A DNA stretch of 47,091 bases from a virus. Its lineage: Duplodnaviria > Heunggongvirae > Uroviricota > Caudoviricetes. The stretch is taken from the IMG/VR virus record IMGVR_UViG_2541047918_000004, one strand, 5' to 3'. The notes beneath the pieces were generated by a model, which saw nothing but the letters and a program-made list of their open reading frames with translations, had not been told where the DNA came from and made no database searches. Position numbers and translations under genes: made by a program. Positions 43,793 through 44,887 of this stretch are shown piece after piece (position 1 is the stretch's first letter; the number at the start of each line of letters is the position of its first letter).

Positions 43793-44887
43793 TTAACTGA
43801 CACCAGAATCATCATAACCGCGACTTGTTATAGCTTGCCTGTATGCGTTCATTTTGCGTTCTGCGTACTGGACAACATCTTTAATGACAAGCTTATGAAC
43901 AACTGAAATAAGGTCATTTATATAACAAAAGTCAGGTGACTTATTTTTCACTGGCAACCAAATAACATCGTCCTTAATTTTTCTATTACTAACACTATCC
44001 CCCCATGAATATTTATGTGAAATAGACCTATAAATACATGAAATAATGCCCAAATAAGCAAACTTTGTCCTTCCATCCTCATTGTTAACATAGAGTCGCA
44101 AATTATGACTGTCGTTTGAAAAAAAGTCTCGCTCCTGATAAGTTACAACGAATGTCTTACCACCAATAAAAATACAGTTCCCTTTTTCCAAGAGTGAGTC
44201 ATCATAGGCGATATAAGAACTAACAGAGTTATTATCACGGCTAGCACAAAGATAAGGAACATCCCCACTATTTTCTATGATGTCTCTAGACAATATGTTT
44301 CCTGTATTGCACACTGAGAATAACTCAGTAACAGGAAAGCCTGAAAATTCAATATTTTTAAAATGTTCCAGGATAAGATAATCTTTTTCCGTTAGTTGGT
44401 AATCACTCAGCCCAGCAGCTATCAGGTATGCTTCCAGCTCTTCTATATGGGCCGCTTCCAGCTCTTCTATATAATTATCCATAAAAAACCAGTCAATTTC
44501 ATTATTTTTCACTGGTAATGAGATGAAATATTCTCCATCTCTGAGTTTGGAACTCGATAACTGTTGACCATAATTAAAACGCCCCTTTAAAGCTTTATTA
44601 ATCATACTGGCAACATACAGTCCGCGCTTTGCATTAAAGTCGGACTTACTTGATTTTAATGTAAGAACATGCACCTTCATTTCTACGCTGGCACAATAAG
44701 GATGATAAAAAGCATCTCCAAAAAAATTAACGCTTATAAAATTTTCATAATGCCTTGCATCATCCATAAACTCGGTATCAAACTCTCCGATGATACCGTT
44801 TTGATCGCTCTTTGCTGAAACACGTTTGATTTTGCCTGGTTTTAATCTTCCTGAGGAGATAAGCGAGCCTGTGCTCACATAGAACAA
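43793..44887 (-). CDS. Restriction-modification specificity (target-recognition) subunit, BcgI-B/HsdS-like
   Basis: 364-aa AT-rich ORF 60 nt downstream of the methyltransferase gene; central tandem 8-aa repeat (IEELEAAH-IEELEAYL) reminiscent of central conserved repeats of HsdS-type subunits; size close to BcgI B subunit. Assignment is by context and architecture. Confidence 0.5.
   Translation of the reverse strand: MFYVSTGSLISSGRLKPGKIKRVSAKSDQNGIIGEFDTEFMDDARHYENFISVNFFGDAFYHPYCASVEMKVHVLTLKSSKSDFNAKRGLYVASMINKALKGRFNYGQQLSSSKLRDGEYFISLPVKNNEIDWFFMDNYIEELEAAHIEELEAYLIAAGLSDYQLTEKDYLILEHFKNIEFSGFPVTELFSVCNTGNILSRDIIENSGDVPYLCASRDNNSVSSYIAYDDSLLEKGNCIFIGGKTFVVTYQERDFFSNDSHNLRLYVNNEDGRTKFAYLGIISCIYRSISHKYSWGDSVSNRKIKDDVIWLPVKNKSPDFCYINDLISVVHKLVIKDVVQYAERKMNAYRQAITSRGYDDSGVS
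44431..44472. repeat. In-frame 18-bp exact duplication at 24-bp period inside the specificity gene
   Basis: cttccagctcttctatat occurs at 44431..44448 and 44455..44472. Confidence 0.8.

Follow-up and report, generated by a model that had tools for sequence, protein, structure and literature searches.

Copy-number variation of an 8-residue helix unit in the specificity subunit of a prophage-borne Type IIB restriction-modification system

In several Type I restriction enzymes, the distance between the two halves of the recognition sequence is linked to short repeats in the specificity subunit. The copy number of the TAEL repeats of EcoR124I/II and EcoDXXI is tied to a spacer of N6 versus N7 (PMC3874165), and one versus two copies of the LEAT repeat of NgoAV from Neisseria gonorrhoeae correspond to N6 and N7 according to methylomes (PMC6789123). 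The standard review regards the relation between gap and length of the central conserved region (CR1) as an unresolved problem, since the C-terminal conserved region (CR2) does not compensate (PMC3874165). Among the Type IIB enzymes, the BcgI-like Hpy99XXII (JHP1365/JHP1364) methylates TCA N6 TRG / CYA N6 TGA (PMC3936762) and is natively active in H. pylori J99 (PMC4490391). Here, we analyzed a 24-bp repeat in the specificity (S) gene of a tailed virus (Caudoviricetes; IMG/VR record IMGVR_UViG_2541047918_000004). The whole stretch of 47,091 nucleotides is referred to as the window. A first-pass annotation, made from the sequence alone, had compared the gene with those of Type I HsdS proteins and proposed that the repeat could be a hotspot for specificity changes, as in EcoR124I versus EcoR124II. 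Our results support this interpretation, with the family corrected to Type IIB. The elements of the S gene are as follows, with TRD denoting a target recognition domain and ORF an open reading frame.

43793..44887, minus strand: S (specificity) ORF with the order TRD1-CR1-TRD2-CR2, 364 aa from the first TTG; the frame is open upstream to 44956.
44423..44472, minus strand: two tandem 24-bp (8-codon) units, IEELEAAH at 44447-44470 (residues 140-147) and IEELEAYL at 44423-44446 (residues 148-155).
44417..44491, minus strand: central conserved helix CR1/D1, residues 133-157, located in an AlphaFold model; 16 of its 25 residues belong to the repeat.
43823..43930, minus strand: C-terminal conserved helix CR2/D2, residues 320-355, located in the same AlphaFold model; presumed antiparallel partner of CR1.

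On the plus strand, the sequence GCTTCCAGCTCTTCTATAT occurs twice, at 44430-44448 and 44454-44472, which makes an exact direct repeat of 19 bp with a period of 24 bp. The period is the one first reported, while the exact duplication is 19 bp long instead of 18 bp. The coordinates given earlier (44431-44472) were essentially right, but the coding strand is the minus strand. Translation of ORF 43793-44887 confirmed that the repeat encodes IEELEAAH-IEELEAYL in frame, as residues 140-155 of the 364-aa product and thus in the middle of the protein, which matches Pfam Methylase_S in two stretches. Simulating the window 30 times with a first-order Markov model gave exact runs of at most 12 bp at periods 4-60, as compared to the 19 bp observed. 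Thus, the repeat is real. Tandem Repeats Finder (minimum score 30) did not list the two-copy 24-bp repeat; two copies are too short for that scoring, and its silence does not count as evidence against the repeat. As the unit is a multiple of 3, it has no frame-shifting property, and all alleles with one to four units keep the ORF. A second exact 19-bp repeat with a 24-bp period is present at 37558-37600 in ORF 36934-37740 (minus strand). It codes for IDHEIDHKTDHEIDH, close to the N-terminal end of the 268-aa product of this ORF from the DNA-packaging region.

The S protein matches Pfam PF01420 Methylase_S in two stretches (E = 3.2e-19) and the PADLOC family Specificity_II, a "Type II specificity subunit" (E = 6.5e-21). 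Sequence searches of the PDB with S, with the restriction-modification (RM) protein encoded next to it and with an RM profile gave no matches, and the comparison was therefore made at the level of the fold. An AlphaFold model of S, based on 76 sequences, reached a mean predicted local distance difference test (pLDDT) score of 92.4. It consists of two alpha/beta domains parted by the helix H133-157 and is completed by the helix H320-355. Searched as a whole with Foldseek, the model retrieved 1YDX (E = 1.9e-13), 1YF2, EcoKI S, PacII S, and the S chain of BsaXI. According to this model, the repeat sits in CR1, the central helix between the two recognition domains. A placement outside the inter-domain helix, which would have spoken against the proposed role, was not seen.

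We then compared the repeat at the protein level among the best 120 of 3035 homologues and at the DNA level among 18 loci, comprising one phage and complete E. coli genomes. The proteins that share the flanks of the window S carry two units (P0003, P0005), three units (P0004, P0006-P0012) or four units (P0001, P0002). With the array removed, they are equal in length and differ by at most 3 residues. Thus, the additional units are not compensated in CR2, whose length is unchanged across the two-, three-, and four-unit alleles. Proteins with other types of TRD1 carry one, two, three or four units as well, P0015 and P0017 having one and P0014 and P0036 four. The near-identical alleles with one to four units come from E. 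coli and Salmonella, and those with three units are frequent (69 contigs with P0004, 107 with P0006). Over 3290 bp, the window and the three-unit allele of E. coli JNEC-KY173 are distinguished by 1 mismatch and one 24-bp gap. Two units were found in 13 of the 18 loci and three units in the other 5, the three-unit alleles being spread over four TRD1/TRD2 combinations; one of them adjoins an in-frame RM gene (L002, L015). A 1-bp length difference of the O111-type loci was set aside, as it lies outside genes. Uniform possession of two copies, which would have argued against a specificity hotspot, was thus not observed; one, two, three or four units occur with at most 3 other residue differences. 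These alignments show that the units are gained and lost whole, ranging from 1 to 4 copies on otherwise identical alleles.

The polymorphism N301D is present on both three-unit and four-unit alleles, and in every lineage the duplicated unit copies its own neighbor (ASH/ASH, ATH/ATH, AQR/AQR). Together, these two observations favor recurrent local events. Throughout the family, the helix is composed of two 8-aa units with the consensus IAELEAER-IAELEAYL. Among approximately 52 species representatives from many phyla, about 40 have two units, 9 have three, and 3 have one. The third unit of Microcystis is a separate 24-bp duplication at the DNA level. Judged from these sequences, the one- and three-unit variants arose independently across phyla.

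The gene upstream of S encodes the RM protein.

44947..46908, minus strand: RM gene with an N-terminal PD...ExK nuclease and a gamma-class N6-adenine methyltransferase (NPPY), assigned by ORF, domain matches, and alignment.

The RM ORF of 653 aa lies directly upstream of S on the same strand. It contains an N6_Mtase domain, a weak VRR_NUC match at its N-terminus (E = 5.6e-4), and a full-length match to PADLOC REase_MTase_IIG (E = 3.6e-228). The residues P29-D30...E48-x-K50 and N457-P458-P459-Y460 are invariant in 23 RM homologues. The structure model of RM was poor (pLDDT 60, shallow alignment), and its Foldseek matches to HsdM and BsaXI RM are weak support. This region of the window shares 99.8-99.9% identity with the lambdoid Escherichia phage PhiR12_3, which comes from ECOR13. 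There, the RM-S pair is flanked by Q/hok on one side and by the SASA esterase and lysis genes on the other, in late-operon orientation. HsdR is absent from this phage (PV340552), and Microcystis and H. pylori likewise have the two genes in this arrangement and no HsdR. Because RM is a nuclease-methyltransferase fusion, S is a separate downstream gene, and HsdR is missing, the system belongs to Type IIB and not to Type I. Thus, the earlier assignment holds for a specificity subunit with an HsdS-like fold, whereas the system itself is Type IIB, as indicated by PADLOC, the RM fusion, and the lack of HsdR. On the basis of sequence, we assign it as a BcgI-like Type IIB RM+S pair of the Hpy99XXII family in the Q-to-lysis slot of a lambdoid prophage. 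RM proteins 69-73% identical to that of E. coli are also found in Bacteroidota, Firmicutes, Proteobacteria, Campylobacterota, cyanobacteria, Chloroflexi, Spirochaetes, and the candidate phyla radiation (L023-L102). Such unusually high conservation over so wide a spread points to frequent horizontal transfer.

The closest characterized relatives are the H. pylori systems Hpy99XXII and HP1472/HP1471, which belong to the same family. P0057, an S protein from H. pylori, shows 48% identity to the window S over 98% of its length. It is encoded next to a 678-aa RM with VRR_NUC and N6_Mtase domains, and its CR1 has two 8-aa units. The H. pylori S differs by a poly-G tract, and variation of CR1 units has not been described there. 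In comparison, the E. coli prophage genes have added a heptanucleotide and an octanucleotide array (see below) and vary in their CR1 units. The (RM)2S enzymes BcgI and BsaXI share the RM fusion, the HsdS-like S with the order TRD1-CR1-TRD2-CR2, and the bipartite target. The likeness to them is one of fold, the PDB sequence searches having been empty. Moreover, the RM subunit of BsaXI is larger (~915 aa) and carries knob and paddle domains, and no CR1 repeat polymorphism has been described for it.

With respect to the repeat itself, EcoR124I/II and EcoDXXI show the same combination of features, namely, a short in-frame repeat in the central helix between the TRDs, a copy number that differs on otherwise identical alleles, and an uncompensated CR2. 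In EcoR124, 2-3 copies of a 12-bp or 4-aa unit are present in a Type I enzyme that includes HsdR, and the change in spacer was demonstrated by experiment. The window unit comprises 24 bp or 8 aa in 1-4 copies and belongs to a Type IIB RM+S pair on a prophage, for which we infer the effect on the spacer. Thus, the comparison with EcoR124 drawn in the first-pass annotation is apt for the copy-number variation in the central helix, but not for the unit, which is twice the size. The repeat would work like the EcoR124 switch, yet with its 8-aa IEELEAxH unit, its Type IIB context, and its lack of PDB sequence relatives it is not a member of the Type IC TAEL/LEAT group. NgoAV provides a second parallel. 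Its LEAT repeats vary in copy number (0-3) within one species, and its gene carries a second, frameshifting repeat, as do the E. coli sister alleles described below. NgoAV differs in being a Type I enzyme whose unit is 4 aa long, and a poly-G tract takes the place of the octanucleotide as the frameshifting repeat.

Considering these parallels, the 24-bp module is likely to be a variable-number spacer-helix module and, as such, a natural dial for target-site length. Slipped-strand mispairing or unequal crossing-over between units would lengthen or shorten CR1 by 8 residues, a step of ~12 Å or 2.2 helical turns. A change in CR1 would both move and rotate TRD2 relative to TRD1, so that the non-specific gap is altered while both half-sites are kept. 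We estimate a change in the gap of 2-4 bp per unit, because the precedents scale to ~2 bp per 8-aa unit and the helix rise alone would give ~3.5 bp. If Hpy99XXII (TCA N6 TRG) is representative, the ground state with two units would be N6. Since a single Type IIB S module directs methylation as well as cleavage, both activities would be expected to switch together.

Several points weigh against this proposal. A literature search for methylome data on these alleles found none. The step from copy number to spacer length is taken by analogy with Type IC enzymes, in which the unit is half as long, and 8 residues are not a whole number of heptads. As CR2 (36 aa) is not lengthened, the CR1 of a four-unit allele (41 aa) would outgrow its partner, and some alleles may simply be inactive. 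The CR1 of BsaXI contains a hinge (PMC11997821), and a similar hinge might absorb the extra length and leave the target unchanged. Furthermore, RM is out of frame with the upstream ATG in 13 of the 18 loci, including the phage record nearest to the window. With RM out of frame so often, specificity may be under weak selection and the polymorphism could be partly neutral. Finally, the S frame lacks a canonical start codon at its conserved N-terminus. As a possible source of published recognition sites for the E. coli alleles, we considered a methylome preprint on O111 Shiga-toxin-producing E. coli, but it concerns a different, BREX-type Type IIG enzyme.

These points lead to an alternative that we consider unlikely, although it accounts for part of the data. 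The changes in copy number might reflect slippage that is neutral or slightly harmful, in a cassette largely off or decaying, and give rise to no new working specificities; either the two-unit form would be the only functional one, or the flexibility of the helix would absorb the length. The out-of-frame RM genes, the frameshift that shortens S in L005, L016, and L018, the clear family norm of two units, the lack of any compensation in CR2, and the BsaXI hinge all fit such a scenario. However, the changes always comprise whole 24-bp units, and the S ORFs with one, three or four units are otherwise intact and conserved. The three-unit alleles are common, with the 69 and 107 contigs mentioned above and 9 of the ~52 species representatives, and the variants have many independent origins. 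One three-unit allele lies beside an in-frame RM gene (L002, L015), and the analogous repeats of EcoR124 and NgoAV do alter specificity.

The repeat also coincides with a recombination joint. Where alleles differ from the window in TRD1 (L004) or in both TRDs (L005), the similarity begins or ends exactly at the repeat, with query breakpoints at 924-931. According to these alignments, CR1 additionally serves as the site of TRD cassette exchange. There is a precedent in the StySB/SP hybrids, which were produced by crossing-over in the D1 region (PMC3874165). From these breakpoints and the precedent, one could argue that the repeat is mainly a homology patch for TRD exchange and that its copy number is a by-product of unequal crossing-over. 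We think this improbable as the main explanation. An exchange patch is compatible with a dial for target-site length rather than opposed to it, and it leaves unexplained the perfect neighbor copies found in every lineage, a pattern that points to local slippage. Chance similarity or faulty assembly as the origin of the repeat, to which its mere two copies in the window and their omission by Tandem Repeats Finder might point, can be dismissed in view of the simulations, the recurrence of the units in complete genomes of independent laboratories and on hundreds of contigs, and the persistence of the helix repeat across phyla.

While a variable-number unit in CR1 is the preferred reading of the repeat, the surrounding cassette, with its arrays and a candidate frameshift site, is more unusual than the 24-bp repeat itself. 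Upstream of the listed RM gene, the window contains a heptanucleotide array.

46999..47091, minus strand: perfect (GACCAGC)n array (GCTGGTC on the plus strand) running off the window end, with 13.3 copies visible.

The array comprises 83 copies in PhiR12_3 (L001 11500-12080) and 23-120 copies across the 18 loci, and RM shares the frame of the upstream ATG in 5 of these 18. Genomes with an in-frame RM include JNEC-KY173 (three units in CR1), DETEC-S792 (two units), strain 48 (three units, with a different TRD1), and 2012EL-2448 (truncated S). It contains no stops in any frame. The sequence AAGGA-N7-ATG precedes it, and the conserved RM N-terminus, which matches that of non-enterobacterial homologues, follows in frame. 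The listed TTG is thus downstream of both the conserved N-terminus and the probable ATG, the latter being located on the far side of the heptanucleotide array. Read in the RM frame, the array encodes (DQRPATS)n, and database proteins begin with MLP(DQRPATS)n. These features suggest an on/off phase-variation switch for RM, which would be unusual for E. coli. A plus-strand coding sequence annotated as "YXWGXW repeat-containing protein" (46989-47091; "EmrB/QacA" in the phage record, L001 11490-12107) lies almost wholly inside the array. As the array is free of stops and the length of this coding sequence tracks the copy number, the YXWGXW/EmrB annotation is probably an artefact.

Sister S alleles from outside the window carry an octanucleotide array, (GCGGACTC)n, directly after CR1 and its 24-bp units, which is read as GLADSRTR repeats. 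The number of copies is 8 in L005, 16 in L016, 6 in L017, and 16 in L018. Only n = 6 gives a full-length S, while the others end after TRD1-CR1 and encode a half-subunit. A literature search turned up no account of either array or of the DQRPATS peptide. The survey by Atack of simple-sequence repeats in REBASE covered Type I genes only, excluded units that are multiples of 3, and did not mention Escherichia.

Two further elements lie at the RM-S junction.

44950..44956, minus strand: heptamer G GGA AAG in the RM frame, candidate -1 site into the S frame (GKVNSPLSDKLRSVEWGEF...), directly 5' of the RM stop TAA at 44947-44949.
44906..44944, minus strand: 13-bp hairpin with a 13-nt loop, candidate frameshift stimulator, starting 5 nt 3' of the heptamer.

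The conserved N-terminus of S (GKVNSPLSDKLRSVEWGEF) lies upstream of any ATG, GTG or TTG (44888-44956). The listed TTG start is located ~23 codons into the conserved sequence, and PGAP calls an ATT start. In several genomes, PGAP lists "subunit S (x2)", as if the S gene were broken, but translation showed an intact ORF in L003 and L006. This split is an annotation artefact owing to the missing start codon; the real truncations are the octanucleotide alleles L005, L016, and L018. The S frame is -1 relative to RM, which ends with ...G GGA AAG TAA.

We surveyed this junction in 80 loci from species representatives, of which 77 were analysable. In all 77, the last or penultimate RM codons contain an X XXY YYZ heptamer, read in the RM frame, in the forms G GGA AAA, G GGA AAG, A AAA AAA or C CCA AAG, as compared to a background of 0.9% per codon. 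The glycine codon of the heptamer is GGA in 75/75 cases, while GGA accounts for 29% of the glycine codons elsewhere in these RM genes. Likewise, the codon before the heptamer ends in G in 75/77 junctions, against 16% in the rest of the RM genes. Of 66 loci, 65 have S in the -1 frame. A stop in this frame directly precedes GGG AAA in some of the loci, and the first canonical start follows up to 461 nt downstream. The hairpin was evaluated over 72 sequences, with 93.9% of cells paired and 5 compensatory pairs. No shuffle out of 500 attained these values, and pairing in slid controls was at most 47%. The hairpin of the window has a free energy of -25.8 kcal/mol (z = -4.7). In the E. coli sister alleles, the heptamer is A AAA AAG, and another hairpin is present at the equivalent place. 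Two loci, L057 and L060, are natural in-frame fusions of RM with half of S (862 and 895 aa) that have no stop at the junction. Rfam has no family matching the junction hairpin, and a limited literature search retrieved no report of frameshifting in any restriction-modification system.

The conservation of the heptamer, the -1 position of the S frame, the covarying hairpin, and the missing start codon of S lead us to propose a candidate programmed -1 frameshift that would yield an RM-S fusion in addition to free RM. The signal would consist of G GGA AAR or A AAA AAG, the stop codon, and the hairpin, and the predicted fusion of ~1040-1070 aa spans the junction peptide ...FAGKVNSPLSDK. The phage lambda -1 frameshift signal is G/GT G GGA AAG. 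The A AAA AAG signal of dnaX likewise combines an X XXY YYZ heptamer, a spacer, and a stable hairpin. Unlike these bacterial -1 signals, the heptamer of the window abuts the zero-frame stop codon. RM and RM-S made from one mRNA would supply the stoichiometry of 2 RM : 1 S. The predicted RM-S product would be a single chain, as are the RMS proteins of the Type IIB enzymes AloI and CjeI. An engineered M-S fusion of EcoKI was active once free M was supplied (PMC3510504). The lack of an S start after the RM stop, as published for H. pylori, fits the junction of the window; the authors took it as inactivation and added a start codon artificially (PMC3936762). A frameshift would explain how an S gene without a start codon can be part of an active system in H. 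pylori.

Alternatively, S may be expressed by termination-reinitiation at an ATA, GTA, ATG or GTG codon that overlaps the RM stop. The overlap ATGA in 6 loci and GTGA in H. pylori are in line with such a mechanism, which explains, however, neither the conservation of the heptamer at synonymous sites nor its replacement by A AAA AAG in the sister alleles. Taking repeat, arrays, and junction together, we lean toward the view that S of this Type IIB family is made as an RM-S fusion through a conserved -1 frameshift, and not as a free subunit, and that the E. coli prophage version is a multi-tract contingency locus. Its three hypermutable tracts would be the 7-bp array, turning RM on and off, the 24-bp units in CR1, setting the spacer length, and the 8-bp array, switching between full and half S. 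The exchange of TRDs would be a fourth source of variation. Such a contingency locus has not been described in E. coli.

In several Shiga-toxin E. coli, the RM-S cassette adjoins stx2 or stx1 and the ileZ-argN-argO tRNA genes, a slot within the Q-dependent late transcript (L005 20-979; L013 1-466; L006 887-1136). Switching of specificity or expression in such a cassette could alter both the phage host range and the methylome of the lysogen.

The allelic series of one to four helix units on an otherwise identical S is material for testing the relation between CR1 length and the bipartite gap. It carries this question from Type I to Type IIB enzymes, in which the cut positions should move along with the methylated bases. 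If the proposed frameshift holds true, it would be, as far as our literature search showed, the first programmed frameshift in a restriction-modification system, and it would link the two-subunit Type IIB enzymes mechanistically to the single-chain ones.

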